NCBI GenBank assembly: GCA_951406725.2
Contig: OX597824.1
Location: 43,276,001 to 43,340,000, forward strand
Reading direction: 5' to 3'
DNA from: Octopus vulgaris
Taxonomy: Eukaryota
DNA: 64,000 bases
Both the position numbers and the translations under genes were made by a program. Shown in pieces: positions 9,309 through 36,983 of this stretch (position 1 is its first letter; each line of letters opens with the position of its first letter). The notes beneath the pieces were generated by a model. That model saw only the letters and a program-made list of their open reading frames with translations, was not told where the DNA came from and did no database searches.

Positions 9309-9497
9309 TAGTTGAAATTTACAGAAAAACAAAAGATGGAGACAGGTATATAAACAACAAGCAGGTGTATTAGTTTGGCGCTCAGGAAGGTGAGAAAGTC
9401 TCTTACGTTTCGAACCTACGTTCTTCAACAGAGAGGAACACGAAGAAATAAACAAAGAGAGAATTAAAAAAAACTTTAGAAGTTAGTGAGCAATCAT
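9309..9497 (-). mobile_element. ~185 bp non-coding element carrying a minimal hammerhead variant (copy 1 of 3)
   Basis: Homologous to 16215-16392 and 36800-36983. Minus strand 9435-9400 reads ctct CTGTTGA A gaac gtag gttc GAAA CG TA agag. Confidence 0.75.
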
Positions 9498-9969
9498 ATG
9501 TGTGTGTGTATGTGTGTGTGTGTGTGTGATTGTGTGTGTATGTGAGAGAGTGTGTGTGTGTGTTTGTGCGTGCGCATGTGTGTGTGTTAATGTATGTATG
9601 TATGTGTGCATGTTTCGCTTAGCCATTGGTGTTAGAACTCAATAAACGTATGCTTTTCAATAAAGCGTTAATTGGGTATAGAACGTAATACGAAATCAAA
9701 TAAAGAACAAGAAATTATGCGACGAACTTCACTAGTTTACAGCTCTTTCTGCCATAACGTGCACTGTAATCAGAGTTGAATATTTGTGTATCACCTTCTA
9801 GCTTCCTCGGACCTTCAAAAGTGAAGTTTAGGGTTGAGAAAGTATTTACATATACAGAAAACAGAAAGGACCACCGCTGAAAAATACCAAATGACAGCAC
9901 CTTATAATAGAAGCATACGTTGCCAATGAAGTTCATTGCATGATTTCCTTATTTTTAATTCATTTATTG

Positions 9970-10014
<45 letters not shown>

Positions 10015-10016
<2 letters not shown>

Positions 10017-10330
10017 CGTGATCACCGTGACCGACCAGGCTATCAGATGTTGCTACACATCGCTGGTCACAATGCGCTTCGCATTGTTTTAGCCTTCAAA
10101 TGACGCCACCCCGCTGGCTAAGCGAGCAGGCCAACAGAAGAAAGAGTGAGAGAAAGTTGCGGCAAAAGAATACAGCAGGGATCGCCACCACCACCCCCTG
10201 CAGGAGCCTCGTGGAGCTTTAGGCGTTTTCGCTCAATAAACACTCACAACGCGCGGTCTGAGAATTGACACCGCAATCCTGCGACCGCGAGTCCGCTGCC
10301 CTAACCACTGGGCCACTGGGCCATTGCGGC
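10015..10330 (-). mobile_element. tRNA(Arg)-like-headed SINE (family C)
   Basis: Minus strand reads TGGCCCAGTGGTTAGGGCAGCGGACTCGCGGTCGCAGGATTGCGG (A-box and a TCG-like loop), followed by a SINE body. Lies between microsatellites. Confidence 0.75.
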
Positions 10331-10865
10331 CCCCCCCCACACACACATACACACACACATACATACATACATACATACATACATACATACATACATACAT
10401 ACATACATACATACATACATACATACATACATACATACATACATACATACATACATACATACATGCGAATTCATATACGGAATTTAGCGGAAAATGGCTC
10501 TTTGTCGGTTGATTTCAGCAATGAAGTATTCTAGCAAACCGATGAACTTTAACTGACTCAAAGAATTATAGCATATGAGGACGAGTATTTCCCAGTCACT
10601 TGTAATTTTCAGAGATAATCAGAGTAATATAGTGCGTGACAAGGTTTCAAACAATGTTAATTTGGGTTGGGTCTATGACATGAAACGCTTGCCGAATGTG
10701 TCATGGAATGGGATCGAACCCGAGATATTATGCCTGCAAAAGTACCACATTAACCACTCGGCTATGCACGCACACACAAATCACGGACATACATATATTT
10801 ATATGAATGCATGTGTACTTGTAGACACACATCCTCATATATACACACACACATACACGCGCGCG

Positions 10866-10922
<57 letters not shown>

Positions 10923-10926
10923 ACAC

Positions 10927-10960
<34 letters not shown>

Positions 10961-10961
10961 C

Positions 10962-10993
<32 letters not shown>

Positions 10994-11070
10994 CGCATGC
11001 ACACACAAACAAAGATACATATTCATGTTTGTCAGCAATCATTTATTCCAATGTGATGATTATGATTATT

Positions 11071-11119
<49 letters not shown>

Positions 11120-11730
11120 CAGCAGCAGCAGTAGCAGCAACACAAGCACCAGCTTTTATATTGTCTAATAATATGGGAGCGAAAGAGAGAGAGAGAGAAA
11201 TTGCCTGATGTCCTATTGACATCAGGCAATCAGGTGAAGTATTGATTATGTTCAACATAGTGACACAGATGACGCATTGCGATCATGGTGAAGATACTTA
11301 ACTCCTACTGGCTCAATCAATCTAGCTGCAAAGATGTACCACTGCAATTTGCCGGAGCACTGAATAATTAACGATCGCTTGTCATTAGATTGCTTTGCCG
11401 TGTCCATATCGTCCTGTAAAATATGGGTCCAGTCCCTTGCTGACAGAAGAGCTTGAGGTATGACCATTTTTGATAATACGGACAAAAAAATAATTAATCA
11501 TTTATTAAATGTGAAGATATGTATTTTCTGATTTCGGTTATGGTATAGACATTTGTCTTAGGTAGTAGTGTGCTGTAATTGAAAAATGTGCCTATCAGAT
11601 TATAAAAAAACATCATGATGTATTTCAGATGATGCAACAGATTCAACATGCACAGATACTCATGCATATATATATGTGTGTGTGTATGTGTGTGTATATG
11701 TATGTGTGTGTGTGTTGTATGTGTTTGTGT

Positions 11731-11799
<69 letters not shown>

Positions 11800-11805
<6 letters not shown>

Positions 11806-12590
11806 GTCAGGCCACTCTTAGACGCTACTGGTAACATGTAACCCTACAACTTGGCAACTAAACTGGCAACCCCATCAAGCTTGCTTGGTGAGGAGGGCGA
11901 TTGTTAGACACCCTGCAAGAAGGAAAATAAGACCTGTCAAAGGGCGGAAGAGCTCCTGAGCAGTCAACGGCATTCCAACTATATGTGTACATGTCTATGT
12001 ATGCACGTATGTATGCGCGAGGACGTGGAAATGCCCGGGATGTTGTCCAGGCGCGCGGTTGTCCCACTGGAAGTGGGAAGCTCGCTGTTATTGTCACAAC
12101 ATGTCCCTAGGAGAGGGAAACTCTGAGAGAAAACCTGCGACACTGACAATATTCAATGATGTAGACTAGTTCTTCTTTTTGAGTTTATGTTGTCCTTGTT
12201 CAGTGAGTGGGATTGGATTTGTGCAAATCCTTTCCCCACTCTAAAAAATCATCATGCACAGGCAGTGCTTGAAGAAAAAAGTAGCCGATCGTTGAAGACC
12301 AAGTCCGGCAGCAAAGACTACAGTGATGCGGCCACGTTTGCATGACGAGAACAGGAAGATCACTACATCAACTATTGTGGCGGCAGCGATCCATGCACGA
12401 GTGAATCCAGCACAGCGCACCAGAAAAGACATGTGCGAATCAAATTAAGAAAGCCCTAAAATCGTAGCGCCTCGACCTTGGACATGCTAAGGCCAGTGCC
12501 ATGGATCGGAAAGCGTGAAAAGACATCATCACCAGAGGGTGTCTTCCAGCAGCACCAACAGCAGTGAGAGGACAGCCTGAAGTACTTAAT
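11800..12590 (+). mobile_element. Probable internally deleted RTE-type LINE derivative
   Basis: GC-richer block whose 3' part resembles an RTE C-terminus (GHVC...RKDM..SN..AMDRKA*KDI). No intact ORF. Confidence 0.4.
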
Positions 12591-12670
12591 CAAACAAATT
12601 GAGGCAGTTGAGACGACAGACCCCAAACCCCGCCGGTCGCCAGGTAGGTATTAAAGAATAAGATAAGATA

Positions 12671-12703
<33 letters not shown>

Positions 12704-12709
<6 letters not shown>

Positions 12710-12930
12710 GCGTATACTAAGGATGACCACAAAGTGGACATCCAATATACTAGAAGATCACCTACGATATATCTACAAAGAAAAGAATGTTCTCTAGAGA
12801 AATTCAGCAAACATCTGGTGTTTGCGGAATTTCTCTAGAGAACATTCTTTCTTTGTATATAGATCGTAGGTGAACTTCTTCTAGCATATTAGATGTCCAC
12901 TTAGTGGTCACCCCTATTATACGCATGTAT
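12704..12930. repeat. Foldback inverted repeat (~108 bp arms) between (TA)n tracts
   Basis: ATACATGCGTATA...GAATGTTCTCTAGAGAAATTCAGCAAACA, a short loop, then TGTTTGCGGAATTTCTCTAGAGAACATTC...TATACGCATGTAT. Confidence 0.92.
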
Positions 12931-13028
12931 TACAATTTTTCTGAATTTTCAGATTTTTCTCTATGCTAGGTTTTAAATTGATTTTAATTAAATTAAAATT
13001 AATATTCAATTTATCCCCCTCATTAATT

Positions 13029-13090
<62 letters not shown>

Positions 13091-13094
<4 letters not shown>

Positions 13095-14296
13095 GTTGTT
13101 TCACATGAAATGTCGTATTTTTAATTACTTGTTATTTCAGTCATTTAAATACTCAATTATGTATACCTTGCATTTAATTTTGACTCTTTTTCCTTCTCAA
13201 CAATATTAGTAGTGAAAATTCGTACCCACAAACCTTATGACAATGATAACAGCCAAACTTTGTTGAGTGATTTTCTGGTATAAATACAAACTGCGTCACT
13301 CTACCGCAGAAGCTCTACGGAATATCAAGTGAGCCTTTGGTAATGTTTTTTTATTTTACATCAGAACTGTTCAGAGTTGATTCCAAAGCTCTCTTACATA
13401 AGATGATAGCCTTGAAAATAAACCAAGGGGCAGGCCAAAATCAGTTATTCGGCATGATGGATTAAATGCTTTGGTTGAACGAAATCCGAGAACAAAGGTC
13501 CGAAAATTTACATCAGAACTCCAAACATCTCGCACAACTGTTTTTGGACACCTGTAAAAAATTGGAAAAGTCAAGAAAACAGATGGGTTTGTTCCACATC
13601 AACTGAACGAGATAAAAAAAATGCCTCGAAGTGTACTCCTTATTGCTTTCTCAACTAGAAAAAGACCATTTCTGCATCAAATCATTACTTGTAATGAGAA
13701 ATGGATACTCTTTTACAACAGCAGCAGAACAGGACAGTGATTACATGCAGGAGAGTCACCTAAACACTACCCAAACCCACCATTACATCCTACAAAGTTA
13801 GTGGTCACTGTATGATGGTCTGCGAAAGAAGTTATTCACTATTCATTTTTGCATCATGGAAAAACGGTAACGGCAACATCGTATTGATTGCATGCATGTG
13901 ATTTTGAAAAATAAGCAACCCAGACTACTGAACAGAGATGGCCCAATTTTGTTCCACAACAATGCACGTCCTCACACTCCACAAGCTCCTGTTCAAAAGT
14001 TGCAAAGCCTGAATTTTGAGATTTTGCAACATCCTCCCTATTCCCCTGATATCTCTCCTATTGATCATCACTTAAAACATTCTTAAATAGAGAAGAGGTA
14101 ATTGAAGCACTCGGACAGTTTATCATAGCAGAAGATGAATGTTTTTAAAAGATGAATTATATGACATAGAGAAACGTTGGGTAAACGTCAGAAATGAACA
14201 TGGCGCATACTTTGATTAAATAAATCAGTTCTCTAACACTTCTGAAACATTTTATTGTTACCTTTCAAATATGACATTTCACGTGAAACAGCCTTA
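13091..14296 (+). mobile_element. Full-length defective mariner (DD34D) transposon
   Basis: TIRs TTAGGTTGTTTCACATGAAATGTCGTATTT and AAATATGACATTTCACGTGAAACAGCCTTA with TA flanks. Motifs GFVPHQL, ITCNEKW, FHNNARPH, HPPYSPDISPID. Several stops. Confidence 0.93.
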
Positions 14297-14298
14297 TA

Positions 14299-15530
14299 CA
14301 GGGACTAGCATCATAGCATCATAATTTTGAAATATCTATAAAATCGTCAAAAGCTTGTTTATTTTTATGTTTTTTGATTTATTATTAGTGTTGCTTAACA
14401 TGTTTTACTAAAATTGTTGTTTCTTTTCAGATATCATCAGAAAAAGGTAATTAAAATTCATTAAAATGACAGATCTATCGGACTTTCAAAGAAGACAATT
14501 GGTTGGTGCTCGTATGGCAGTTGCTAGCGTAACAAAACAGCCGAAATCTTTGGTGTATGAAGAAGTGCTGTCTCGAAAGTAATGACAGCCTTTGAGAAAG
14601 AGGGAAAAACCTCCTCGTCGAAGCAAAACTCCGGAGGAAAACCAAAACTTTCAGATAGGGACCGCCGGATTCTTACGCGAATTATTAGAAAGGATCACAA
14701 ACGTACACCTCCCAAAATTACTGCAGAGCTTAATGACCATCACGAGAACCCAGTTTCCACATAAACTGTTCGCCGGGATCTGCACAAAGCCGGATTTCAC
14801 GGGAGGGCTGCAATCAGAAAACCACTACTTTCAAAAACAAACGTTGCAAAGCTTTTAGAGTGGAATAAAAACCTACAAAATTGGTCCCTAGCGCAGTGGA
14901 AGAATGTAATTTTCTCGGAAGAGTCATCCTTTACCTTATTTCCGACCACTGTTCGAGTATACATGTGGAGACAGCCAAAAGAAGCATTTGACCTAGACTG
15001 CCTTCTACCAACTGTTAAAAAACATGGGAGATGACCTGTGTTGATCTGGGGCTCTATATCTTGGAAATTCGCCGGCCCAATGGTTTCCATTCATGGCAGA
15101 ATAAATAGTCAAGACTATCTACGCATTTTATCTGATGAAATTCATCCTATGATTGCGGAACTGTTTCCGGAAGGAAACGCAATCTTTCAGGATGCTAATG
15201 CACCAATTCACACAGCCAAAGTTGTTACTAGATGACATGAGGAACATTCTAGTAAAGTTAAACATTTTATCTGACCACCACAGTCCACAGACCTCAATAT
15301 TATTGAACATTTATGGTGCCTTTTAAAAAAACAAATAAGGAGTCGATATCCTCCACCATCACCACAAAAAGAACTGGAGACTGTTTTAGCTGAAGGATGG
15401 ACAGAAATTCCTTTGGAAACGATTCAAATTTTGTACGAGTCCATACCTCGTAGAATTCAAGCCGTAATTACTGCCAAAGGCGGTCCTATCCCATATTAAA
15501 ATAAATTTGTTTGAAATTTTACAATCCTTG
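14299..15530 (+). mobile_element. Defective Tc1-like (DD34E) transposon
   Basis: Transposase from ATG ~14466: MTDLSDFQRRQLVGARMA..., GGKPKLSDRDRR, VIFSEESSF, FQDANAPIH, PPQSTDLNIIEHLW. Ends are TA|CAGGG and CCTTG|TA. Confidence 0.92.
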
Positions 15531-15537
15531 TATATAT

Positions 15538-15756
15538 TCTTTTACTTGTTTCACTCATTTGACTGCGGCCACGCTGAAACACCACTTTTAGTCGACACCA
15601 GGACTTATTCTGTGTAAGCCTAGTACTTATTCAATCGGTCTCTTTTGCCGAACCGATATGTTACGGGGACGTAAACACACCAGCATCAGTTGTCAAGCGA
15701 TGCTGGGGGGACAATTACACACGCACAAACGTACACACACACACACAGACACACAG

Positions 15757-15852
<96 letters not shown>

Positions 15853-16005
15853 CGACAGTCTTCTTTCATATTCCGTCTACCAAATCAACTGACAAGGCTT
15901 TGGTCGTCCCGATGCTATAGTAGAAGATACTTGCCCAAGGTTCTACACAGTGGGACTGAACCATGTAGTTGGGAAGCAAGCTACTTACTGCACATCCACT
16001 CCTGC
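15538..16005 (-). mobile_element. Full CORE-type SINE (family B) with internal microsatellite
   Basis: Reverse complement of the 40247-40685 copy, including the tail TTTACTTGTTTCA..TCATTTGACTGCGGCC. Confidence 0.85.
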
Positions 16006-16052
<47 letters not shown>

Positions 16053-16214
16053 AACAGTAGAGTCCAGAGTAATCCATAAGCAGGAGCGGTGCAGCCGGAG
16101 TGTAGGAAGTCCAAAAGAGAATCCGTAAAGGGTAGAAAGTCTAGTGGAGAAGTTCGTGTGTGATGAGAGGAGTCAGGATCAACTGGTGCGACCACTTGAG
16201 CATGTGATATATGG

Positions 16215-16392
16215 GGAGAATTCACGAAAAAACAAAAGACGAAGACAGGTGGTGTAGAAAACAAACAGATGTATTAGTATAACGCTCGGGAATTGAAAAA
16301 ATCTTTAACGTTTCGAGCCTACGCTCTTCCACAGAAAGGAACACAGAAAGAAACAAGGAGAGAAAAAATATGTGTAGTGGCTACCGATCTAA
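16215..16392 (-). mobile_element. ~180 bp hammerhead-variant element (copy 2 of 3)
   Basis: Minus strand 16338-16303 reads cttt CTGTGGA A gagc gtag gctc GAAA CG TT aaag. Confidence 0.7.
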
Positions 16393-16406
16393 TGATAATA
16401 ATAATA

Positions 16407-16450
<44 letters not shown>

Positions 16451-16987
16451 AGTAACCTACTTCAGAAGCAAGGAAAACTAATACAAATAGTCACAATACA
16501 AGAACAAAACAAAAAACTGCTTTAAGTTTTTAAGGAAGCTGACAAATGCAAAAAAGAAGTCACAGTAATCAACAACTATGAAGAAACAGAAGAAACAACG
16601 AAAGCTGTAAAACAACCCAAATCCAAACTAAAACTGGAACAGCAATTGAGCATGGATGAATGTAGTGGCTAAGAATGATCCCTGGCTTACCACCCATGCA
16701 GGAAGTGCAAAAGATTGTCTTAAGTGGTCCGTCACAGGTAATGAGAAGAGCATTGTCGCTGTGAATTTTCTTTCCTCTTTTCCCCCTTTATTTTCTTTGT
16801 TTACTTTTTAATTTTTATTTTTTATTTATCTTTCTGTCTTCCGCTTTTTCTCTACCACTTGACTTTGTAAATGAACATTCCGGTGTGTTTATTTTAATGG
16901 CCTACCAATTTATACAGTGCGTTTCTCTGACCTAGGTGTCAGGAGGACACTCGGTAAGAAGTGGAAGCAGAATTGAAAGAAGATGCT

Positions 16988-17033
<46 letters not shown>

Positions 17034-17039
17034 GTGATC

Positions 17040-17250
17040 CTTTACACTAAAGGCACAGGGGCTGAAATTTGGTGGGAAGGGTGTAGTTGATTACATCGAC
17101 CCCAATGTTTCACTGGTACTTAGTTTATCGACTCCGAACGGATGAAGGGCAAAGTCCTCCTCGGCAGAATTTGAATTCGGAACGTGGTAACAGACGAAAT
17201 ACCGCTAAGTATTTCACCCGGCGTGCTAACCATTCTGCCAGCTCGTCGCC
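17040..17250 (-). mobile_element. Family A SINE between (TAA)n tracts
   Basis: GATTACATCGACCCC...GTGCTAACCATTCTGCCAGCTCGTCGCC. Confidence 0.8.
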
Positions 17251-17299
17251 TTCAGTATAATAATAATAATGATGATGATGATAATAATAATATTAATAC

Positions 17300-17347
<48 letters not shown>

Positions 17348-17974
17348 TAATAAGTTTTTACAGGTTTTGGCTCGAGGCCAGTAAATTTCGGGAAAGGTAA
17401 TTAGCCGATTAGTGGACACATCGACCCCAATACGTCAAATCAAACAGAACGTCAAATCAAACAGAATATTCCAGGTTTTTCATTCACATGAATCTTATAA
17501 TAAACAGTAAAATCAATAAATTTGAAAAACCTTGATAGGAAACTGCTAACTATAATCGTATTTTTAATATCATGTATTTATTTATTTCATTATTGATTTA
17601 ATAATGTGTATATGTGTTCGAGTATGGAAGAAATTGTACAGGGAGAGAGAGAGTGTGTGTGTGTGTGTATATGTGTTTGAAAGTAATTGTATGTGTGCAA
17701 GTGTCTGCACGCGCATGTGTATGCGTGCGACCATGCATTTGAGGGTTATTATGTGCATCGACATCATTCCTGACAATTTATTAAAATCAGTCAAGAGCAT
17801 GTTACGTCTATTCTTTTGTTGCTTTCAATTTGCTTTTACCTGCCGTCTTTTTTCATTTCTTTGATAAATTATTTCGAAACTTGTCTTATAATAGATTTTA
17901 TTCACTGTGATATGATCATAATATTTCTAGTTTGCAATAGAATATTTTTTCACACACACTTCTTTTCTGCTCCC

Positions 17975-18049
<75 letters not shown>

Positions 18050-18819
18050 GTCTGTTTATCTATCTATCTGTTTATCTATCTATCAATCTACCTCTCTCTC
18101 TTCTTCTTTCTCTCTCTATCTCTCTCTCACACACATACACACGTACACACACACACTCACGCACAGACACGCAAACACACACAGAGTTTATTTCTTGTTT
18201 GATTTCATTTTATTTGAACTTTATTTTGTTTATCAAAAATTATAAAAATATAGAGGGCGCGAAAGGTGCAGAGGTGTATGTTTCAAATGTTGGTCCTTAG
18301 CCAGTACATTATCTCCTGCTCCCCAAGGACATTGATGTTTCTAATTCATTTATCATTTGCAACTCCAGATAATAACCACTATTTCTATTCCAGACACATA
18401 CATTCTTCTTGAATCATCTACGAAATTACTTTTTCTTAATTACCATCGTTAATTTTTAAAACTTATATTTTATGAGGGCTTATATGCACGTCTGGGTGTT
18501 TGTGTGCATGTAAGTGGTGTGAGTGTGCGTACATTTGTGTATGTATGTGTGAGTGGATATATTTGTTTATATCTGGACATGTGTGTGTTGATGGTTGTAT
18601 CTTCGTATTTACAAATAACTGTGAGTGAAGAATCGATACTAGACCTTAAATAGTACTTGTGTAGCGACGCTAAAACGATGAAAAGGGAAAACCGACCTCC
18701 GTGGGATTTTAAATCTGAGCTCTGAGAACTGGATCAAATAAAAGAAAGCATTCTAATCACCATTCTAAAGATTCTTTCATTTAGCCAGCATCTCTCTTCT
18801 TATGAAATGATCCAGACTA

Positions 18820-20148: not shown

Positions 20149-20222
20149 TCCAGCTGATGAAGGCATTTCATGACAATAGATTTTTTGAACGTCTAACTAG
20201 AAAAACAACGTTTATACCGGGA
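20149..20222 (+). ncRNA. Degenerate hammerhead-like motif
   Basis: CTGATGA, then aggcatttca...tgaacgtct (stem II), then GAAA aac aac gtt TA. Stem I is weak. Confidence 0.35.
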
Positions 20223-21702: not shown

Positions 21703-23147
21703 TATCGCCCAATCTCACTCACCTCCCACATCATTAAAGTGTTTGAAAGAGTGTTAAGATCAAGGATAGCTGACTTCCTGGAGACCCACAAACTCCTAAA
21801 TGCAAATCAGCATGGCTTTCGCTGTGACAGGGACTGTCTAACACAGCTCTTACACCACATTGAAGATGTACTCAAAGCCTTGGGAACAGCTTCGAACTCT
21901 GACGTCATATATCTTGACTTCAGTAAAGCGTTCGACAGGGTAGACCATAATATCCTACTCTCAAAATTGGCAAATGTTGGAATCCGGGGAAAAGTTCTAC
22001 ACTGGTTTAAGTATTTCCTGGCGAATAGAATACAACATGTTGTAGTTGATGGAGTCCACTCAAGCCCAGCAAAAGTCACCAGCGGTGTTTCCCAGGGGAC
22101 TGTTTTGGGTCCGCTACTCTTCATAATTTACATAAACGACCTTTCCAGTGTCGTACATTACTGCAAAGTGAAAATATTTGCTGATGACACTAAGCTCCAG
22201 CAAATCGTCAATGAAGAAGCAGACCGAACTCAACTCTAGTCTGATCTATATGCCGTTAGTCAATGGGCAGACAGAAATAAAATACAACTGAATGAGGGAA
22301 AATTTGAGCTGATGCATTTTGGAAGAAATTCCTCACTAAAACAACCATACTCTCTTCCTTCAGGGGAACCGCTCACAGCCTCTAACAATATCAGAGACCT
22401 GGGTGTAGTTGTTGATGACGATCGCAGTTGGAGTGCACACATCAACAAGAAGGTCGATATAGCTCGTAGGATGAGTTCCTGGATCTTAAGAACTTTCCGG
22501 TCCAGAGAACAAGGTGTCATCATACCACTTTCTTCCTCCCTTGTACGGCCACACCTTGAATACTGCTGCCCACTGTGGTCTCCCCATACAAGACAAAACA
22601 TCTCCAGAATTGAGTCTCCCCAGAGGGCACTCACTAAACGAATTGAAGGCATGGCCGCTCTCGATTATTGGGATCGCCTTAAGCCTTGAAACTTTACTCC
22701 CTCCAGCATCGCCGTGAGCGGTACATCATTTGTACGATGTGGAGAATATAGCGCCAACTTTGCCCAAACGACCTTAACATTAGCTTCAAGGTTCATCCAA
22801 GACTGGGACCACGGGCCATACGACCTCTGCCCAGTTCAAGATCACAACATACATGTACACTGCAACATAATTTCTTTTCCTCAACAGGCCCTGCCCTATT
22901 TAACATTGTCCCGAAGAAGATCAAAGAGGAAAAGGATCCCATCAACTTTAAACGGAGTCTGGATAGATTTCTTCAAAGAATACCAGATAAGCCACCCATA
23001 ATTCGATACAACTCACCCAACAAGAACTCACTACTTGAACAAAACTTGCCTTAAACAGGATTCGAATAATCCTATCAGGTGGTGCTATTAAATTAGACAT
23101 GGCCTGGACCAATCTTGGTCGAAACATATCTAAGTTTATCTAAGTTT
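21703..23147 (+). mobile_element. 5'-truncated CR1/L2-group LINE (RT), copy 1
   Basis: YRPISLTSHIIKVFE, NQHGFR, YLDFSKAFDRVDH, GVSQGTVLGPLLF, FADD, RDLGV, VRPHLEYC. Ends in a 3' stem-loop and a (TATCTAAGTT)2 tail. Confidence 0.95.
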
Positions 23148-23222
23148 ATATATATATATATATATATATAATTGTGTGTGTGTATGTATGTATGTATGTA
23201 CGTATATATCATATACATACAT

Positions 23223-23576
23223 ATAAGAAAATGAGATGAAAAAAGAATAAGAAAGGTTTTATTATGAACTTTATTAGCTTTCAGATGCAGTGGACTCATA
23301 GTTGAGTGGCTGAATAACAACCTATGCCTTCATCGGTGCCTCGAATATAGATTTAATCTAATTACCTTTGGATATACGCTTTTTTATATACATCAGTACT
23401 AACTTTGTGTCTGGGAATACTTTTTTCTAAATATAATGCACTTCATATTCGTCGCTTCGATGAAGTTATAGGATGTTATTCTGGCAGTCAAATATGAGTC
23501 TACTGCACCCAATAGCAGAAACGGCTCTAAGCTAAGGAAGTTCATTTTTTTTTTCATTGTCATCTCATTTTCTTAT
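23223..23576. repeat. Degenerate foldback element with hammerhead remnants in both arms
   Basis: ATAAGAAAATGAGATG pairs with CATCTCATTTTCTTAT, and GCAGTGGACTCATA pairs with TATGAGTCTACTGC. Plus arm 23454-23532 reads gct TCGATGAAG...AGAAAC ggctc TA agc. The minus arm retains CCGATGAAG. Confidence 0.65.
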
Positions 23577-23689
23577 TGCTGCTATGTACTCGTCTAACAC
23601 TTCATTCTAAAGCATACGTACACAGAGTTTTACCACAGCTCATTAGTCTCGCAATGCCTAAGTGAAATGAATACGCACGCACACACACA

Positions 23690-23784: not shown

Positions 23785-23976
23785 ATATATATAGGATTCA
23801 ATCCAATTGACAACGTAGGTCAAGTAGGTACTGTAAATTTAGGGTGAATACTTGATAAGTGTAAGCACCTGTATACGCCACCTAGTGGCAGGGGTGAGAG
23901 GGTATATATCAAATAAAATCAAAACCAGAATATATATATATATCCGGTGTGTGCAGTTAAGGCAGTATTAAAATAG

Positions 23977-24152
23977 GCGCAGGCGTGGCTGTGCGGTAAG
24001 AAGCTTGCTTCGCAACCTCATGGTTCCGGGTTCAATCCCACTGTGTGGCACCATGGGCAAGTGTCTTTTGATTTAGCCTCGGGACGACCGAAGTCTTGTA
24101 AGTGGATTTGGTAGACGGAAACTGAAAGATGTCCGTTGTGTATATATATGTG
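23977..24152 (+). mobile_element. Family B SINE head, truncated at the duplication breakpoint
   Basis: GGCGCAGGCGTGGCTGTGCGGTAAGAAGCTTGCTT...GGATTTGGTAGACGGAAACTGAAAG. Confidence 0.9.
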
Positions 24153-24163: not shown

Positions 24164-25572
24164 GAAAGAGTGTTAAGATCAAGGATAGCTGACTTCCTGG
24201 AGACCCACAAACTCCTAAATGCAAATCAGCATGGCTTTCGCTGTGACAGGGACTGTCTAACACAGCTCTTACACCACATTGAAGATGTACTCAAAGCCTT
24301 GGGAACAGGTTCGATCTCTGACGTCATATATCTTGACTTCAGAAAAGTGTTCGACAGGGTAGACCATAATATCCTACTCTCAAAATTGGCAAATGTTGGA
24401 ATCCGGGGAAAAGTTCTACACTGGATTAAGTATTTCCTGGCGAATAGAACACAACATGTTGTAGTTGATGGAGTCCACTCAAGCCCAGCAAAAGTCACCA
24501 GCGGTGTTCCCCAGGGGACTGTTTTGGGTCCGCTACTCTTCATAATTTACATAAACGACCTTTCCAGTGTCGTACATTACTGCAAAGTGAAAATATTTGC
24601 TGATGACACTAAGCTCCAGCAAATCGTCAATGAAGAAGCAGACCGAACTCAACTCCAGTCTAATCTATGTGCCGTGAGTCAATGGGCAGACAGAAACAAA
24701 ATGCAACTGAATGAGGGAAAATTTGAGCTGATGCATTTTGGAAGATATCCCCTCACTAAAACAACCATACTCTCTTCCTTCAGGGAAACCGCTCACAGCC
24801 TCTAACAATATCAGAGACCTGGGTGTAATTGTTGATGACGATTTCAGTTGGAGTGAGTGCACACATCAACAAGAAGGTCGATATAGCTCGTAGGATGAGT
24901 TCCTGGATCTTAAGAACTTTCCGGTCCAGAGAACAAGGTGTCATCAAACCACTTTTTTCCTCCCTTGTACGGCCACACCTTGAATACTGCTGCCCACTGT
25001 GGTCTTCCCATACAAGACAAAACATCTCCAGAATTGAGTCTCCCCAGAGGGCACTCACTAAACGAATTGAAGGCATGGCCGCTCTCCATTATTGGGATCG
25101 CCTTAAAGCCTTGAAACTCTACTCGCTCCAGCGTCGCCGTGAGCGGTACATCATTTGTACGATGTGGAGAATATAGCGCCAACTTTGCCCAAACGACCTT
25201 AACATTAGCTTCAAGGTTCATCCAAGACTGGGACCACGGGCCATACGACCCCTGCCCAGTTCAAGATCACAACATACATGTACACTGCAGCATAATTTCT
25301 TTTTCTCAACAGGCCCCGCCCTATTTAACATTGTCCCGAAGGAGATCAAAGAGGAAAAGGATCCCATCAACTTTAAACGGAGTCTGGATAGATTCACTCA
25401 AAGAATACCAGATAAGCCACCCATAATTCGATACAACTCACCCAACAAGAACTCACTACTTGAACAAAACTTGCCTTAAACAGGATTCGAATAATCCTAT
25501 CAGGTGGTGCTATTAAATTAGACATGGCCTGGACCAATCTTGGTCGAAACATATCTAAGTTTATCTAAGTTT
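24164..25572 (+). mobile_element. CR1/L2-group LINE RT, copy 2 (tandem duplicate)
   Basis: Near-identical to 21745-23147. ORF 24152..24805 contains GVPQGTVLGPLLF and FADD. Confidence 0.95.
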
Positions 25573-25637
25573 ATATATATATATATATATAATGTGTGTG
25601 TGTATGTATGTATGTACGTATATATCATATACATACA

Positions 25638-25991
25638 TATAAGAAAATGAGATGAAAAAAGAATAGGAAAGGTTTTATTATGAACTTCATTAGCTTTCAG
25701 ATGCAGTGGACTCATAGTTGAGTGGCTGAATAACAACCTATGACTTCATCGGTGCCTCGAATATAGATTTAATCTAATTACCTTTAAATATACGCTTTTT
25801 TATATACATCAGTACTAACTTTGTGTCTGGGAATACTTTTTTCTAAATATAATGCACTTCATATTCGTCGCTTCGATGAAGTTATAGGATGTTATTCTGG
25901 CAGTCAAATATGAGTCTACTGCACCCAATAGCAGAAACGGCTCTCAGCTAAGGAAGTTCATTTTTTTTTCATTGTCATCTCATTTTCTTAT
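25638..25991. repeat. Duplicate of the 23223-23576 foldback element
   Basis: Part of the tandem duplication. Confidence 0.7.
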
Positions 25992-26279
25992 TGCTGCTAT
26001 GTACTCGTCTAACACTTCATTCTAAAGCATACGTACACAGAGTTTTACCACAGCTTATTAGTCTCGCAATGCCTAAGTGAAATGAATACGCACACACACA
26101 CACACACAAACACACATATATATAGGATCCAATCCAATTGACAACGTAGGTCAAGTAGGTACTGTAAATCTAGGGTGAATACTTGATAATTGTAAGCACC
26201 TGTATACGCCACATAGTGGCAGGGGTGAGAGGGTATATATCAAATAAAATCAAAACCAGAATATATATATATATATATA

Positions 26280-26980: not shown

Positions 26981-27029
26981 TATATATATATATATGTCCG
27001 GTGTGTGCAGTTAAGGGAGTATTAAAATA

Positions 27030-27194
27030 GGCGCAGGCGTCGCTGTGCGGTAAGAAGCTTGCTTCGCAACCACATGGTTCCGGGTTCAATCCCACTGTGT
27101 GGCACCATGGGCAAGTGTCTTTTGATTTAGCCTCGGGACGACCGAAGCCTTGTAAGTGGATTTGGTAGACGGAAACTGAAAGATGTCCGTTGTG

Positions 27195-27269
<75 letters not shown>

Positions 27270-28231: not shown

Positions 28232-28287
28232 GTCTCTGATGACAGAATATCCCATACTCTGGGGTATCCCAGAAACAGCTGTAAGAC
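28232..28287 (+). ncRNA. Type I hammerhead ribozyme, canonical core
   Basis: gtct CTGATGA ca gaatatccca tactc tggggtatcc ca GAAA CAGCTG TA agac: stem I gtct/agac, palindromic stem III, GUA cleavage triplet. Confidence 0.88.
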
Positions 28288-28682
28288 TTTGAATTTTTTC
28301 CAATAATAATAATATATGACTTAGGATGTTTGCCTTGCCTTAACGTTTGTTGTCCTCCTTAACAATTATATATCCGCCATATCGGAAATCTGCAATGATT
28401 CCATAACTACCGTTTCGGATACAACCTTGGAGACTTAGTAATCCGTTACAGCATTTACCCAGCGTACCAACTCGTTTGGATCACCTGTGATACTTTGTGT
28501 ATGTGTATATGTGTGTGTGTATGCGTGTATGTTTGCGCGTGCACGCGTATGTGTATGTGTGTGTGTGTCTGTGTCTATGTCTGTCTGTCTGCTTTACAGG
28601 GTACGTTTATCTCTGCCGATAACTACGGTGTCTTGTTTGTCTACGGTTTCTATATTACGTACATATATATATAAACGATATC

Positions 28683-28775
28683 ATTGACAGTAACTTCAAA
28701 GTTTCGGCCAGCTAAGTCATCATCGGACGAACCGACTATGGCTTAACTAACCGAAACATCGAAGTCACGGTCAAT
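28683..28775. ncRNA. Inverted pair of degenerate hammerhead motifs at the centre of a larger hairpin (~28640-28808)
   Basis: Minus strand: CCGATGA tgacttagctggcc GAAA CTTTGAAG TT. Plus strand: CCGACTA tggcttaactaacc GAAA CATCGAAG TC. The consensus stem III CTTCGAAG is a palindrome. Confidence 0.7.
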
Positions 28776-28847
28776 ATATATACGAAAGTATAGAGTAACC
28801 TATTAGACTGATGTAAAGAAAAGTTATTATAACTGAACACAGGAACA

Positions 28848-28902
<55 letters not shown>

Positions 28903-29298
28903 CAATAAGGGTTTTTTTGCAACAAGTTGCTTAACTACATACCGAAAATTTTAGAAATAGCACCCAAAGGACTACTATTTCCTTTTACTACAAAAATATG
29001 TCTCCACAGACAACAATATTTGTAACTCACATATGGCCAAAAAAGAAGAAAAATAACGAAATCAAGCAGTCTACGGTTAATTATGGACGTACGTTTCTGG
29101 ATTAGAATCATAAATATATATATATATATATATATTTATACCAGTTAGTCAAATGTGAATAACTGGAAAAAACATCAGTATTTACTTAAGTGAGTACGTA
29201 TTTGTAGTGATATATGGCCTGTACACAGTTGCGCTTGGTGCTTTCACTATTTAAATACCTTGATCTCTCGAATCCTGGAAATTTTGTGAGCGTGTGTT

Positions 29299-29354
<56 letters not shown>

Positions 29355-29432
29355 TGTGTACTCACACACACAGACATACGCATGTGTGTGTTTTTGCATA
29401 CAAACATACAAACAAACATACATATATATATG

Positions 29433-29503
<71 letters not shown>

Positions 29504-30042
29504 GTGTGTGTGTGTGTGTGTGTGTGTAGACACACACAAATATATGTATCTATATTTATATATATATCTTGTTACTGGGGAAGGAAATTATCAAATGTTA
29601 CCACTATATATTTCAGGGATTGAAGATTTATATGCACGATATGTATATATATGTATGTATAATTTTTTAATTAATTGTTAAATTTTCATTATTGCATTAA
29701 AATCTGCATTTTCAAATTTTGTTTCTACTATTTATAGTTTTACATTTACATGACTCTGTAAAATCACGTGTTGCCATGGCATCGGTTCTTTCCATAGAAA
29801 CAGCTATATTCCCTTTAATCATACGCGATTTCGGTATCTTTATTATCATTAATCTGTCACATGGACAAATATATATAAAGTATCGTATTAGAAATCGATG
29901 TTTACTTTGGAACGGTTATTTGCAACGTTCAGTGGATAGCTTAGGATGGATTTAATGGTCTAGTTATTTTATATGGTGGAATTTTATAACCAGGAGCGTT
30001 GTTGAAACCGTACGTATGTGATTGTGAGCGTCAACGTATGTA

Positions 30043-30107
<65 letters not shown>

Positions 30108-30440
30108 ATATACACTCACATATTACATATACATGTATATATCTTATTTTTAAATAGTAATTTCTATCTGTCTGCCTGTTACCATCTTGCTGCCCCTAGC
30201 AGCGAACCAATCTTCACGAAATTTGCATACACGTTACACTCAGTTTGAACATTCAGTTCATTTATAGACTGATTGGATTTCAATAAAAGTCAATAATAGG
30301 CTCCCTACATGGGTTAGACTCTTATGTAATAAAATGAGAAGGGTGCAAAGATTGTTAGTTTGTGGTAAATGTGGTGGCATAATGAGGGTAGCTAATATCA
30401 GAGAAGGGGAGAAAACAGGAAGAGACAGAAAAACAGGAAA

Positions 30441-30477
<37 letters not shown>

Positions 30478-31681
30478 GAGACAGGGAGAGAGCGGAAGAG
30501 AGAGAATGTGCTTACTTAAGGGAACAGCTAATTTTAATAATTTATTCTTTAATTTTTACCTATCATTTAACGCATACGCTTTAGTGAATCAACTATTGTG
30601 TGCTCAGTCAAAACTTTTACGATATGTCCAACAACACGTGTAAAACTAAGAAGCGAAAGATAAAGTGTTTTTGTGTTTGTTTTCAAATCACCATATTAAG
30701 ATTTATTAAAGCTTTACCAAAGTACTGAAACAATAAACTCTAGATTATGCCTTTCATTTTCTTCCATAGATGAACAACCCGTCGTTGTCGGGCAATTTTT
30801 ACAATAGAATGTCATATATATTTTTCGTTTTTACCATGTCAGACCATGCCTTCCCCGACAGATAGGCCTCTGTCCTAACGGACAGATTTGTGCAATTTTT
30901 CCGCAAAAAACTTTCCTTGACGACCTATTTCGTTTTTCATTTATATACATGTTTGTTCGACCATTTCACAGGGCTTTATTCATTAAAACTTATTAAAGCT
31001 TTAGAAGATCTTATAACTTTGGTCGTCGTAATGCTTTGCTTTCGTTTGTTTAATAATAATTCCTTCTCCTAATAATTATGCTATCATTTTGTGATAGACC
31101 GCTATCAAGCAGAAACTGCCAGCTTCCAAATCCTGTTCTCTGATTAGGTAAAATTGATTAAACTTTAAATCCCAGTAACATTTTACTGAAATTTTCCCGG
31201 AACAATTAAATAACAAAATAGGACTTAACGTGGATAATTATTACAATATACAAAATTTGAAAATTTTGACGTAATTTTAACATTTCACAAAGTGATACCA
31301 ACAGAGAAGATCCTCAAAATTAATAATAATTAACCAAAATTCAGTTGTTTCAGAGTCACACATCGTCAATCCGCTCATCCTTCCAACCATCCACCAATTC
31401 AATTTTGATATTACCTTACCATTGCAATCAATCGATTTTATAATTCAACTGTAATACTTGCCAGTATTTTGTAAATCTGTACCACAACACCGTGTATTTG
31501 TAAATCTATTTCTTATTTAAACGGGAATTGAACAGGGAACAGATTAAGACATGAAACAGTGTAATGGGAACTGGAAATAATCCCCGCTTTTCCGGGTATT
31601 ACCAAGTAATTCAACTAGTATATATATATATATATATATATATGCATATATGTATGTATGTGTGTGTGCGCGTGTGTATAC

Positions 31682-31723
<42 letters not shown>

Positions 31724-32561
31724 GTATGTAACAGATACATATATATATCCACAGACGCACACATACATATATATGTATGTATGTATATGCATCACACACA
31801 CAACACAGACACACATACATGTTAATAAAAGTACAGGAGTTACGATATCACTTTCATTAACTATTAGCTGCTTCAGTTGCATGGAACGGGCACCCGGAGT
31901 TGAGTGCCGTCTTATAGCTTACTCGGAGTCATTAAATGTGTATCTCTGCGTTGATTCCCTTTAACGATTCTTTACATTTCGATAAATAGATTGATAAAAT
32001 ATTTATCAGACTGGCATAACTACTGGTTCAAAAGGATCGACTATGTCCCTTGAAGGTCGTGCGCTAACATGACTGCAATTGAATGAATGAAACTAGTAAA
32101 TGAACAAAAGAATATGGTATTTAATTTTCTTCGGTGGACTGGTATTAAATCCTTTATACTGAAGCACAAATACCACTTTGTTAGTAATTTTACCAACAGA
32201 ACTGTAATGACGACATCAGAACGAATGCAGTAGTTCTCCAGATTGACTACAAGCCATGCAGCTGGTTATAGATTGCTAAGGCGATAATTTTCATATTTCC
32301 TATAAATAAATTATAATAGATAATAGAAGCATTCTTCAGTTCAGTTGTTACAATAGAATGAATACAGCGAAAAAATTTTTTAAACTTGGTCAAAATGATT
32401 TCAATTTAACCATAAGTGCTAAATTTTGTTATGAAAAAGTTGTTCTGATATGGAGCTAGTTCAAACTCCTACTTGCACCATTATAACGACTTCTTACAAG
32501 ACAGATTAAATTTTTAAATAATTGCTAGTGACGTTTTAAGGAGTAACGTTTGCGGTACGAT

Positions 32562-32609
<48 letters not shown>

Positions 32610-32650
32610 CCCGCGAATGTCTTAAAATTATCATTAATTAATAAAATAAG

Positions 32651-33045
32651 AGGCGGCGAGCTGGCAGAAACGTTAGCACGCCGGGCGAAATGCTCTGCAG
32701 TATTTCATCTGCTGCTACGTTCTGAGTTCAAATTCAGCCGAGGTCGACTTTGGTTTTCATCCATTCGGAGTCCGTTAAATAAGTACCAGTTACGCACTGG
32801 GTTCGATATAATCGACTTAATTCATTTGTCTGTCCCTGTTTGTCCTCTCTGCGTTTAGCCCCTTGTGGGTAGTACAGAAATAGGGATAATGTCCGTCTTT
32901 ACTTTCTGAGTTCAAATTCGGACGAAGTCGACTTTGCCTATTATATTTTCAGGGTCGATAAAATAAATACCAGTTGAGCAATGAGGTTGATGTAATCGAC
33001 TTACCTTCTCCACCGAAATTCCTGGCTTTGTGCCAAAAATTGAAA
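32651..33045 (+). mobile_element. Family A SINE with duplicated internal module
   Basis: GGCGGCGAGCTGGCAGAAACGTTAGCACGCCGGGCGAAATGC... Confidence 0.85.
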
Positions 33046-34139
33046 CAGTTTTTAATTAATAAAATTGATGAAGGTCTATCCTGTCCATAAAGGTAAACTT
33101 ATGCTATATAAAAAGCCTGTTCATAGAATTATCCGAGCATTCTTAATAACAAAAAGAGCCTTTTTGATGAGGCAGATGAGTATAAATATTTTATCAATTT
33201 TAATGTGTTGATATACTTGTGTAGCCCCAGGTCAGGTTTAATTGGACTGATCTATGACATACAGTAGTTAAACAAACGGCAACACTCATCCCATGTGCCA
33301 TCTTTTCACTGTAGACGACGAATGAATTTCTACGTGAGACTTCGATCAACTCAAAATATCAGCCAAATTCCCTTCAAATTTCAACCTACTCTCTGAAAAA
33401 TAAATGAATATATTGATTAAAGTAGATTTGTATAAAATTTATAAGAAAATTAAGAGAAGCCAAAACTGGAATGCCGGTTGGACGATGACAATTGAATACA
33501 AAGAAACTAGAAATGTAGATTTCTCCAGACATATTTTGAACACGATGACTATGCAATGATAAATTCTGATTATTGTAATGACCAAATATAATATATTATT
33601 ATGTGTTGAATCATTAAGAACAAGAATCATTAAAAACAGGAAACAAACAATCGACTTTTCATCATGGACCGCACCCAACCATTTTTTTTTCTTATTGGTA
33701 GATGTCAGATTCTAAAAACCCGGAGAGCTACAATATAAACAAGTGCCATAATGATCAATAGAGAAAAGATAAATCATCGAATGAGTCGAACATGACGCTA
33801 TGTAGTTTATCATACTCAGACTTACACGTATTTGCCAGAAAGATAAAAGTAGGTCAAACCAATAGCTTCATTCAAGACACACGAATATCTGACGAGAATA
33901 TCCCAAAAAGGAGAGGGAAAAAACACGAAATAATGCACCTTTGAATTTCAAAATCCATCTGCGGGGATCCGAAAGCAGTCCTGCTCATCCTTACAACAGT
34001 TATCTCTGAGGCCATGCGTATTACAAGCCCTTTAGTGAGGTGAGCCAAAATAAAAGTAGCAGTTCTGCTCTCTACTCCGATACAATATATATATATATTT
34101 ATATAGTTAGAATTTAGAAAAAAAGACGAAGACGGTGTG

Positions 34140-34187
<48 letters not shown>

Positions 34188-34419
34188 AAATTAAGAATAA
34201 AATCTTTATAAGAAATTATCAGTAGTTAGCGTGAAAAACCACGTAAGAGAAAAAATCTGTAAATTTTTCCACTTTGAAAATATTTATTTATATTATATAG
34301 AGGGTACTATTATTCATAGGTACCGCACGCTAGAGGGACTTTTGCAGTCAAAACTACTAAAATAAACAAATTGTACCGAATGCAAAACTTCAAAGCAAGT
34401 TATTTAAAAACAGAATTTA

Positions 34420-34483
34420 GTTACATATCACCTGTGATTTCGCAATCAATGCAGAATATGCATTCTATGCTCTTCAGTGCAAC
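34420..34483 (-). ncRNA. Type I hammerhead ribozyme (left arm)
   Basis: Exact reverse complement of 34522-34585. Confidence 0.85.
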
Positions 34484-34521
34484 GAACTCAAGATATATAA
34501 GAAAAAACATGTCTTGAGTTC

Positions 34522-34585
34522 GTTGCACTGAAGAGCATAGAATGCATATTCTGCATTGATTGCGAAATCACAGGTGATATGTAAC
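34522..34585 (+). ncRNA. Type I hammerhead ribozyme (right arm)
   Basis: gttgca CTGAAGA gca tagaatgcatattctgcattgat tgc GAAA tcac ag gtga TA tgtaac, with an AUA triplet. Confidence 0.88.
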
Positions 34586-34835
34586 TAAATTCTGTTTTTA
34601 AATGACATGCTTTGAAGTTTTGCATTCGGTACAATTTGTTTATTTTAGTAGTTTTGACTGCAAAAGTCCCTCCTAGCGTGCGGTACCTATGAATAATAGT
34701 ACCCTCTATATAATATATATATATAAATTAGTGTACAATTTTATATATAGAAGAGGTGAAAGGGCAGTTAAAGCTCAAACCACGAATAAGAGTAATTTCA
34801 AAGAGAATGAAAAATAAAAACATTTCAATAGTTAT

Positions 34836-34903
34836 CCTTATACTCGAGTTTCTGCATTAACGTGCAAATAAATTAATTTGCCATCCTTGCTTCTTCAGTA
34901 AGG
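34836..34903 (-). ncRNA. Type I hammerhead ribozyme, canonical core
   Basis: Minus strand reads cctta CTGAAGA a gca aggatg gcaaat taattt atttgc acgttaa tgc a GAAA CTCGAG TA taagg. Confidence 0.9.
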
Positions 34904-35269
34904 GCGCTAAAATTAATGCATATTTACGCAACACAGAAGATACCCGTTCTATCCTTATACATTATAACTTTTCAAATCCAAAAGAGAGGAAGGAGGATTT
35001 GCATTTTTATTTTGCTAAGTTTTTCACTCCTGGTCATAATAATATATTATATTTTAAAATTTCCCTCTACTAAATACTTTATATTTCTTTGTTTCTCTCT
35101 ACATCTTCAACAAACTTTTTAACCATGTAATTTCCGTGTTCATATATTTAACATTTATCTCTTTCTCTCTCTTTCACACACACGCACACTCTTTTACTCC
35201 ACCTCCCATTCACTCTATTTCTCTAACTATAATATAACGGGCGAACGAACAAGCAGGTTATTACGTATA

Positions 35270-35337
<68 letters not shown>

Positions 35338-35559
35338 CATATATATATACATATATATATGTGTGTGTTTGTATGTATGTATGCATGTATATATACGTAT
35401 ATATGTATGGATGTATGTTTGTATGTGTGCATATGTTCGTCTGTGTGTCTGAGTGTGTGTGCGTGTGTATGTGAGCCCTTGTCAGCAGAGTTTGAGTATG
35501 AGTGTGCCTATTTATGTGTATACATGCGTCATTTATTTGTATGTTCATGAGCAAAAGAG

Positions 35560-36692
35560 TAAGCAAAGAATAAATGTCAACATTTTCATTACATAGTATA
35601 TGTTGCGAATATAGTGTCTAAATTATTAAAACATTAGTCTCATATATTTGCTACAGCCTAACGAAATACCAGCAGTGAGACTGAATGGTATGGAAAGATG
35701 ATTTGTCTGATGGACCAAGACCAGGAGAGTATGGAGGATGAAACAAAACTTCCGTATTTAGTGCCTTAATCTTTTCGTGGGAGGCTTTGCCAATATGTTG
35801 TATTGCGCAATCCTGTAATAGTAACACTCCTTTACGATGGACCGATATTGGGTGAACTCTGGCAAATTTGTGTGCAATGCTTGCACTTGATATCTCTTTT
35901 CTGCATTAACTGTTTTCTTTTAGTTTCACACTTCACGATAGATCACACCATTCATATCCAACCACACGTAGAGCAAAACATTTTTTAGAGATATTGTCCT
36001 AGCTTGAGAATGGATTCTTCTTTTTCAATGGATGCTAGCGATTTGTCGTTTTCTTGAACATGATTAAGGGAGCACACATTTTTATCACTTGTGATGATGC
36101 TACCAGGGAAATGTTCGGTAACAAGGCTCTTCATTTCAAAGATGAACAGAGGGTAAATTTTTGGTTAAGCTGAGAATCAATCAGATGACGAAATACACAG
36201 ATCGAATTTAGACACTTTTCCTTGTTTATGAAGTATTTTATTTTCAAAGTGTGACTTGAATTGACTGTTCTACTAATTCTCGTGCAATTTGCTTTCTGGA
36301 TTTTCCTCAATACGGCTTTCAGAATTTCATTATTTACAATGCTTGGTCATTCAGAACAAGGGAATTTTCACGAGCGAAACTGGCCAAACCATTTTTAGTA
36401 AGCCCGAATACTTAAAGCTTCATGTCCATAGATAGAACGAATATTTCTTGCGCAACTATTCCCTAAGATCCCTTCTTGAATTCATACGGTATACGATGTC
36501 AGATAAGGCTATGACCTAAACTGATTTTAAAATAGTAAAATCGATTCGGATGTCACCACTATAGTGTAAAGTAATCGGCGATAAGACAGAAACATTTTAG
36601 ACTGTAAAAGGTAACGCTTATTTTACAGTTAGTATTGAAAAAAAATACGTCAAATCGACTCAAAATGGGACAGCGTTTTCCTTTTAACCTAA
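35560..36692 (-). mobile_element. Highly decayed mariner-like transposon
   Basis: Mariner-type TIR (reverse complement TATTAGGTTAAAAGGAAAACGCTGTCCCATTT) at ~36663-36693 and an IITSDKNV (ITGDEKW-like) remnant. Confidence 0.5.
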
Positions 36693-36738
36693 TATGTGTG
36701 TGTATATGTTTGCATTTGTATCTTTGTGTGTATGTGTA

Positions 36739-36799
<61 letters not shown>

Positions 36800-36803
<4 letters not shown>

Positions 36804-36983
36804 GAAATTTACAGAAAAACAAAAAAACGGAGACAGTTGTATAAACAACAAACAGATGTATTAGTTTAACGCTCGGGAAGGTGAGAGAGTCTTTTACGTT
36901 TCAAGCCTACGCTCTTCAACAGAAAAGTACACGTGAAAATAGAGAGAGAATAAGAAAGAAACTTTGGAGCTAGTGGTCAATCA
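36800..36983 (-). mobile_element. ~185 bp hammerhead-variant element (copy 3 of 3)
   Basis: Minus strand 36926-36891 reads ctttt CTGTTGA A gagc gtag gctt GAAA CG TA aaag. (TA)n on both sides. Confidence 0.75.

Follow-up and report, generated by a model that had tools for sequence, protein, structure and literature searches.

Does a hammerhead motif in which one core base appears to have changed in most copies of a repeat family still act as a ribozyme, and what kind of mobile element carries it? The question is raised by a 64,000-nucleotide stretch of Octopus vulgaris DNA (assembly GCA_951406725.2, contig OX597824.1, forward-strand positions 43,276,001 to 43,340,000; hereafter the window, with coordinates counted from its first letter), in which three copies of a repeat of about 185 bp each contain a hammerhead-like motif with U rather than A at core position 6 (A6U). 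Judging from sequence, we give roughly even chances to the following explanation: the repeat is a non-coding derivative of the 3' end (pseudo-long terminal repeat) of a Penelope-like element (PLE), and its minimal type I hammerhead would be a weak cutter in the source elements, acting as a dimer or with the help of a protein. We propose more tentatively, at somewhat less than even chances, that this is a high-copy family of several octopus-like species in which A6U is fixed and the remainder of the hammerhead is kept under selection, either as a new active core or as a non-cutting, rod-like signal for the Penelope reverse transcriptase (RT).

Architecture of the repeat and its motif

All three copies lie on the minus strand: copy 1 at 9309..9497, with TA/TG microsatellites on its flanks; copy 2 at 16215..16392, with a short AT repeat at its 3' end and (GAT)n past its 5' end; and copy 3 at 36800..36983, with a TA microsatellite on both sides. 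A preliminary description of the window had reported copies at these coordinates, and blastn and nhmmer confirmed them as 80-85% identical to one another (blastn E 1e-30 to 1e-48; nhmmer E 1e-49 to 1e-54). A search with a profile of copies 1-3 brought up no further full copy anywhere in the window. The copies are dispersed and solo (spacings of 6.9 and 20.6 kb) in a microsatellite-rich window (simple repeats 8%), and we found no coding sequence adjoining them. Their 5' third is least conserved (48-67%, versus 83-88% over the motif).

The motif occupies 9400..9435 in copy 1, 16303..16338 in copy 2 and 36891..36926 in copy 3, again on the minus strand, and runs in the order stem I (4 bp), CUGUNGA, an extra A, stem II (4 bp, loop GUAG), GAAA-CG-U-H and the other strand of stem I. 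C3 falls at 9431, 16334 and 36922, position 17 at 9404, 16307 and 36895 (H17 in copy 3), U6 at 9428 in copy 1 and 36919 in copy 3, and N7 of copy 3 at 36918. From copy 1 to copy 3 the cores read CUGUUGA, CUGUGGA and CUGUUGA, and the arms GAAA-CG-UA, GAAA-CG-UU and GAAA-CG-UA, copy 2 having G at position 7 and U at position 17. The preliminary description gave these core strings correctly as differing from CUGAUGA, but the two versions differ from each other at position 7 alone, and since all hammerheads leave this position free, A6U is the sole departure from the hammerhead core. Stem II is gaac/gttc, gagc/gctc and gagc/gctt in copies 1 to 3. Stem I is ctct/agag in copy 1 and cttt/aaag in copy 2, as had been described, and tttt/aaag, with one U.G pair, in copy 3, which had gone unmentioned.

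We compared this architecture with the minimal hammerhead ribozymes (min-HHRs) of metazoan PLEs, for whose definition Cervera and De la Pena (2014, PMC4209133) used the descriptor cuganga ... gaaannuh (here and below, statements about published work refer to the accessible parts of each source). Written out, the descriptor comprises stem I of 3-7 bp, cuganga plus an extra base, stem II of 3-7 bp, a loop of 3-10 bases and gaaannuh, and our motif matches every term except A6. Stem I has 4 bp in 3/3 copies, with 12/12 cells paired; stem II has 4 bp, with G10.1-C11.1 and the extra A after A9; GAAANNUH with a palindromic 15.2-16.2 is present in 3/3 copies; and CUGANGA is replaced by CUGUNGA in 3/3 copies. 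Beyond the descriptor, the same paper noted three features, all of which our motif shares: an additional base separating 9 from 10.1, the G10.1-C11.1 pair and a palindrome at 15.2-16.2. Also shared are the type I layout, the 4-bp helix I, the lack of helix III, the U-rich upstream sequence (73-77% pyrimidine in our copies) and the occurrence mostly as solo dispersed copies. In the Acropora Neptune min-HHR, the 4-bp stem II and 4-base loop are very similar to ours (PMC4209133). From these likenesses, we suggest that the motif would work like a PLE min-HHR, although it lies outside the published descriptor because A6 fails.

The shrunken arm deserves separate comment. GAAA-CG-UH is present in 3/3 copies, and the idea that helix III would form only between two copies was right; as an ultra-minimal form requiring dimerization, however, it is not novel. 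The arm occurs in 29/56 aligned published min-HHRs (our count from PMC4209133), for which dimer action was proposed and cleavage was absent as a monomer and low as a dimer, so neither the arm nor the dimer requirement departs from what is usual among published PLE min-HHRs. What differs is position 6, which is U in the octopus repeat and A in 56/56 published rows, where the search descriptor demanded A6. The only core variant given for min-HHRs in that paper is U3-A8, and its published rows include no cephalopod.

Could such a motif arise by chance? Both stems accompany the core pattern in 3/3 window copies. As background only, looser U6 and A6 cores were scanned in viral contigs, where each matched at least 120 loci: both stems were present in 0/120 listed phage-contig matches to the U6 core (stem II in 9) and in 0/120 listed matches to the A6 core, and none fits the family profile. 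The preliminary description was right to derive the motif from a hammerhead and to call its core non-canonical.

Variation among the copies and across public contigs

Across the three copies, 24/24 stem cells are paired, whereas slid controls pair 21-63%. Two of the 8 pairs changed on both sides, both in copy 1, and another 2 on one side, both in copy 3. In neutral simulations with a star tree, copy 2 as ancestor and stems chosen post hoc, two pair-keeping doubles arose in 0.2-2%, and two such doubles with no broken pair in 0.01-0.09%. The gagc/gctt of copy 3 is a private CpG-type change; thus, of the paired substitutions previously reported in both stems, the two double-sided changes of copy 1 stand and this one-sided change does not.

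We then followed the motif in contigs from four public runs (X1, X2, X3 and X8, with organism labels A, B, C and E, from three studies; 4 of 22 listed runs), which were aligned to copy 3 at 80% likeness. Each run yielded 7,055-10,200 matching contigs. Depth peaked on the motif at 1.3-4.8 million summed, versus about 4-63 for single contigs, a sum that gives an order of magnitude rather than a copy number and corresponds to at least thousands of copies. Variants were tabulated unphased at a threshold of 2%, and the statements below concern the 40 of 78 rows listed.

Position 7 (36918) was the sole listed site with all three other letters: on the RNA strand, X1 had U in about 45%, A in 27%, C in 15% and G in 13%, and X8 had A in 3%, C in 14% and G in 17%. 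Position 17 (36895) was A or U, with U in 14-24%. Apart from these two sites, the listed rows inside the motif were the CpG pair C15.2 and G16.2, with transitions of 5-10% each, as at CpGs outside the motif, and the two one-sided changes of copy 3. Base 36903 read differently from copy 3 in 93-97% and base 36926 in 86-96%, so that gctt and tttt are private to copy 3 and the stems of copy 2 are those of the family majority; C11.1 accordingly stood at 93-97% of aligned depth, with U in copy 3 only. No T>C change was listed anywhere in any run, which places G17 and A-to-G changes at A9, A13, A14 and A15.1 each below 2% of depth. The chance that both polymorphic non-CpG sites fall among the six unconstrained single-stranded sites of the 36-base motif is 0.035, and that they are exactly 7 and 17 is 0.002.

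Position 6 (36919) had no row, A6 being absent among those listed. Every listed row reached at least 9.1% in some run despite the 2% threshold, from which we infer an A6 share below about 9%. U6 thus appears to be the family norm across four organism labels, in thousands of contigs each. The earlier report of a U6 core in three copies was correct but understated, as U6 appears to be the majority state in 7,055-10,200 contigs per run. That position 7 takes several letters alongside U6 suggests that several source lineages kept the core after U6 arose, and the pattern at positions 7 and 17, together with the rarity of pair-keeping doubles in the neutral simulations, makes the fold look selected in the source elements.

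A second conserved block, at 36842..36876 (minus strand), follows the hammerhead on its 3' side in the RNA and forms a second depth peak that in X8 is as deep as that of the motif; it may be an RT-binding or initiation region. We also observed that 190-259 contigs per run diverge from copy 3 at 36925, just 5' of stem I, and continue into pyrimidine-rich sequence of another kind, which suggests a further major subfamily that bears this motif.

Insertion pattern and neighboring elements

To which class of element does the repeat belong? Besides the three copies, the window holds a stub at approximately 34105..34143 (minus strand), which retains no more than the last ~40 bases at the element's 3' end, lacks the hammerhead and has a TA run on each side; it reads as a 5'-truncated insertion. 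Its resemblance to the left end of the copies (local score 43 versus copy 2) was equaled or exceeded by 0/2,974 random windows (maximum 36), although its significance by nhmmer is weak (E 1.1). The stub previously placed at about 34095-34140 is therefore real, with slightly shifted boundaries. On the motif strand, (TA)3 is found no more than 5 bases from the 3' end in 4/4 cases, against a background of 4.8% of positions. The insertions thus show a shared 3' end, 5' truncation and AT-rich or (TA)n targets, consistent with PLE insertion: (TA)n targets are known for PLEs (PMC8557442), and polarity that retains the 3' end is expected of them (PMC8557442, PMC11167929).

A scan with the family pattern gave 0 matches in viral contigs and 0 in prokaryotic genomes, and one metagenome match was rejected as chance, lying within a bacterial glycosyltransferase-like open reading frame (ORF).

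PLEs do exist in this genome: a separate, decayed one occupies 54978-58176 on the minus strand. Its RT and GIY-YIG segments, spread over several frames, span 55364-58176, and part of the element is 72% identical to a hypothetical protein attributed by its source to Octopus vulgaris. The type I hammerhead of this PLE, at 55014, is canonical (CUGAUGA, A6) and sits some 350 bases past the final coding segment. Relatives of this PLE combine a C-terminal GIY-YIG domain (Pfam, 2/6 scanned) with a cysteine linker, as has been described for Neptune/Nematis PLEs (PMC8557442). We rejected this PLE as the parent of the ~185-bp family, to which it has no DNA similarity and from which it differs in its canonical motif.

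Other repeats in the window were noted in passing. Two adjacent LINE-type (long interspersed nuclear element) RT elements at 21745-23678 and 24164-26093 are 97-98% identical (Pfam RVT_1, E 1e-24) and have common flanking repeats; they represent either a recent duplication or an assembly repeat. Long inverted repeats that are foldback-like or resemble miniature inverted-repeat transposable elements (MITEs) lie at 34281-34725, 40072-40401, 8661-8899 and 46573-46725, the first being 95% identical over 427 bases. A second, unrelated interspersed family of ~180 bp, partly tandem, occurs at 4955-5505, 17037-17251, 32651-33034 and 50058-50253, and we take it to be SINE-like (short interspersed nuclear element). 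A third, of ~130-160 bp, occurs at 9124-9250, 15851-16005, 23973-24149, 27027-27202, 38527-38665 and 40072-40411, and one of its copies adjoins copy 1.

Weighing the explanations and their meaning

As a derivative of a PLE, the repeat could have spread as follows. RNA would come from tandem or read-through source copies, with the unit representing either a PLE 3' repeat or a non-autonomous derivative, and a PLE RT/GIY-YIG protein would copy this RNA in trans into TA microsatellites. Helix III would form between two motifs, on the same or on separate RNA molecules, via the palindrome A15.1-C-G-U16.1, which would place the cut after position 17 (9404, 16307 and 36895). Selection would act on a few source elements, while the scattered copies in the window would be inert and decaying by CpG-type changes. 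Given U6, the short A-U-rich stem I and a dimer energy weaker than that of two monomers, any cutting would be slow and helped by protein; the Anolis PLE hammerhead, for comparison, cuts only with the PLE protein (PMC11167929).

Several observations weigh against this explanation. No PLE ORF lies beside the three copies or the stub in a search with 120 PLE proteins and a profile, whose hits were confined to 55.3-58.2 kb (best tblastn E outside 55-58 kb, 0.07), so that PLE descent rests on the motif, the polarity and the target site; most published min-HHRs are likewise solo copies (PMC4209133). Nor are there tandem copies of the family within the 64-kb window. By computation, the motifs fold with unremarkable z-scores (-0.5 to -1.8), a double hammerhead reaches -3.9 to -14.5 kcal/mol versus -18 to -22 for two monomers, and stem I, with only 4 pairs of which 3 are U-A in the majority form, is unpredicted in the whole-element fold. 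In a pairwise-mutation screen, changes in the CUGA turn gave low activity, except for a C3-G8 swap (PMC9901934). The U6 share was deduced from which of the 78 variant rows are listed (40) rather than taken from a printed figure, and the unphased table limits the evidence for covariation to the three window copies. The stem I change of copy 1 falls below 2% of depth, copy-1-like contigs being ~83% like the reference and possibly under-counted near the 80% cut-off. The three-copy covariation score was matched by 53/500 shuffles and is not significant. The preliminary description had concluded from covariation that the fold is maintained; the fold does seem to have been kept, but the covariation is thin and comes from one copy.

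Might the motif instead be kept for binding rather than for cutting? Here the origin would still be a PLE, and U4-G5-U6 would pair with A15.1-C15.2-G16.2 within a single RNA, converting the three-way junction into a rod-like hairpin bound by the RT. On isolated 46-base motifs, the 6-15.1 pair has a probability of 0.89, 0.31 and 1.0 in copies 1-3 and 0 with A6, and U6 raises in-register stem I from 0.03 to 0.55 in copy 1 and from 0.01 to 0.29 in copy 2. Catalytic mutants of the Anolis PLE hammerhead leave insertion in vitro unimpaired (PMC11167929), and Naiad PLEs spread without canonical hammerheads (PMC8557442). The rod, however, has a probability of at most 0.06 in the full 185-base element; the restriction of position 17 to A or U in listed rows, with G17 unlisted, is the pattern of a cleavable site; and binding of the Anolis protein maps to the whole first 172 bases of the ORF rather than specifically to the motif (PMC11167929). 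We consider a retained, non-cutting rod unlikely, albeit the strongest of the alternatives. Less probable still is that the founder lost activity through A6U and that the dead motif hitch-hiked in the amplification under no present selection. The dispensability of hammerhead cleavage for insertion in vitro (PMC11167929), the CpG-type decay of 4-16% both within and outside the motif, and the reliance of covariation on a single copy are all compatible with such a history. Yet position 7 carries four letters at shares too big for a hidden A6 minority, position 17 is A or U and the rest of the core is quiet, which together indicate that several source lineages diverged after U6 fixation with the core kept; the two pair-keeping doubles of copy 1 would also be unlikely by drift, arising in 0.2-2% of simulations.

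The remaining alternative, that this is another kind of short repeat (a tRNA-type SINE, a MITE or a Helitron derivative) with an accidental likeness to a hammerhead, strikes us as very improbable. Its TTCGAA palindrome resembles an RNA polymerase III (Pol III) B box. The motif overlaps strings that differ from a B box at 1-2 positions, and in 2/3 copies strings resembling an A box (2 mismatches) are found ~35 bases upstream on the plus strand. The copy 3 motif gave 0 matches to the Rfam hammerhead families at E up to 10, and an Rfam scan of the window returned microsatellite and hairpin microRNA look-alikes with no hammerhead among the 150 of 330 rows listed; but Rfam equally overlooks the canonical PLE motif at 55014. 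A Pol III SINE was rejected, as the box look-alikes are mid-element with 1-2 mismatches, the window contains 0 tRNA genes, and the plus-strand polarity of a SINE would be wrong given that the stub retains the left end. The MITE reading was rejected for want of terminal inverted repeats (best 9/20). Moreover, positions 7 and 17 vary just as they do in hammerheads.

How does a PLE-derived A6U hammerhead compare with other natural systems? The Bcep176 phage hammerhead also has a natural change at position 6 and cleaves at <0.1 per min (Perreault et al. 2011, PMC3088659), but there the change is A6C in a single, assayed phage sequence, whereas the octopus family is A6U, high-copy and known from sequence. 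Non-LTR retrozymes are similarly short, non-coding, hammerhead-bearing and PLE-related, with a similar size and scattered solo monomers (Cervera and De la Pena 2020, PMC7229834; 10.64898/2026.07.22.740005); unlike our family, which has no tandem copy in the window, carries a minimal motif and was studied as DNA, they are tandem, have mostly canonical and efficient type I motifs and form circular RNAs (PMC7229834; Li et al. 2026, 10.64898/2026.07.22.740005). The PLE variants of Lunse, Weinberg and Breaker (RNA Biol 14:1499, via PMC6765202) are alike in their short stem III, PLE association and cleavage as dimers. The word hammerhead is absent from the accessible part of a recent Octopus vulgaris repeat annotation (PMC13282606), and we found no natural A6U hammerhead family in the accessible literature, a scope that excludes most subscription papers, Repbase/Dfam entries and figure-only supplements; the family may already be catalogued as a repeat, and the A6U variant may sit in a supplement. 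What appears to be new is an A6U minimal hammerhead, apparently fixed, in an abundant and probably PLE-derived family found under four organism labels.

PLE hammerheads cut poorly, insertion did not require cutting in the only in vitro system (PMC11167929), and there are PLE clades that lack hammerheads (PMC8557442). If the motif were dead and unselected, the repeat would be an ordinary decayed PLE remnant. A changed "fixed" core base with the rest kept in thousands of copies would, by contrast, allow a direct comparison of U6 with A6 and, with assembly, a very deep natural alignment. Searches that demand CUGANGA overlook whole families of this kind. If A6U is fixed and the rest of the motif is selected, the octopus family would amount to a natural experiment on why PLEs retain hammerheads.

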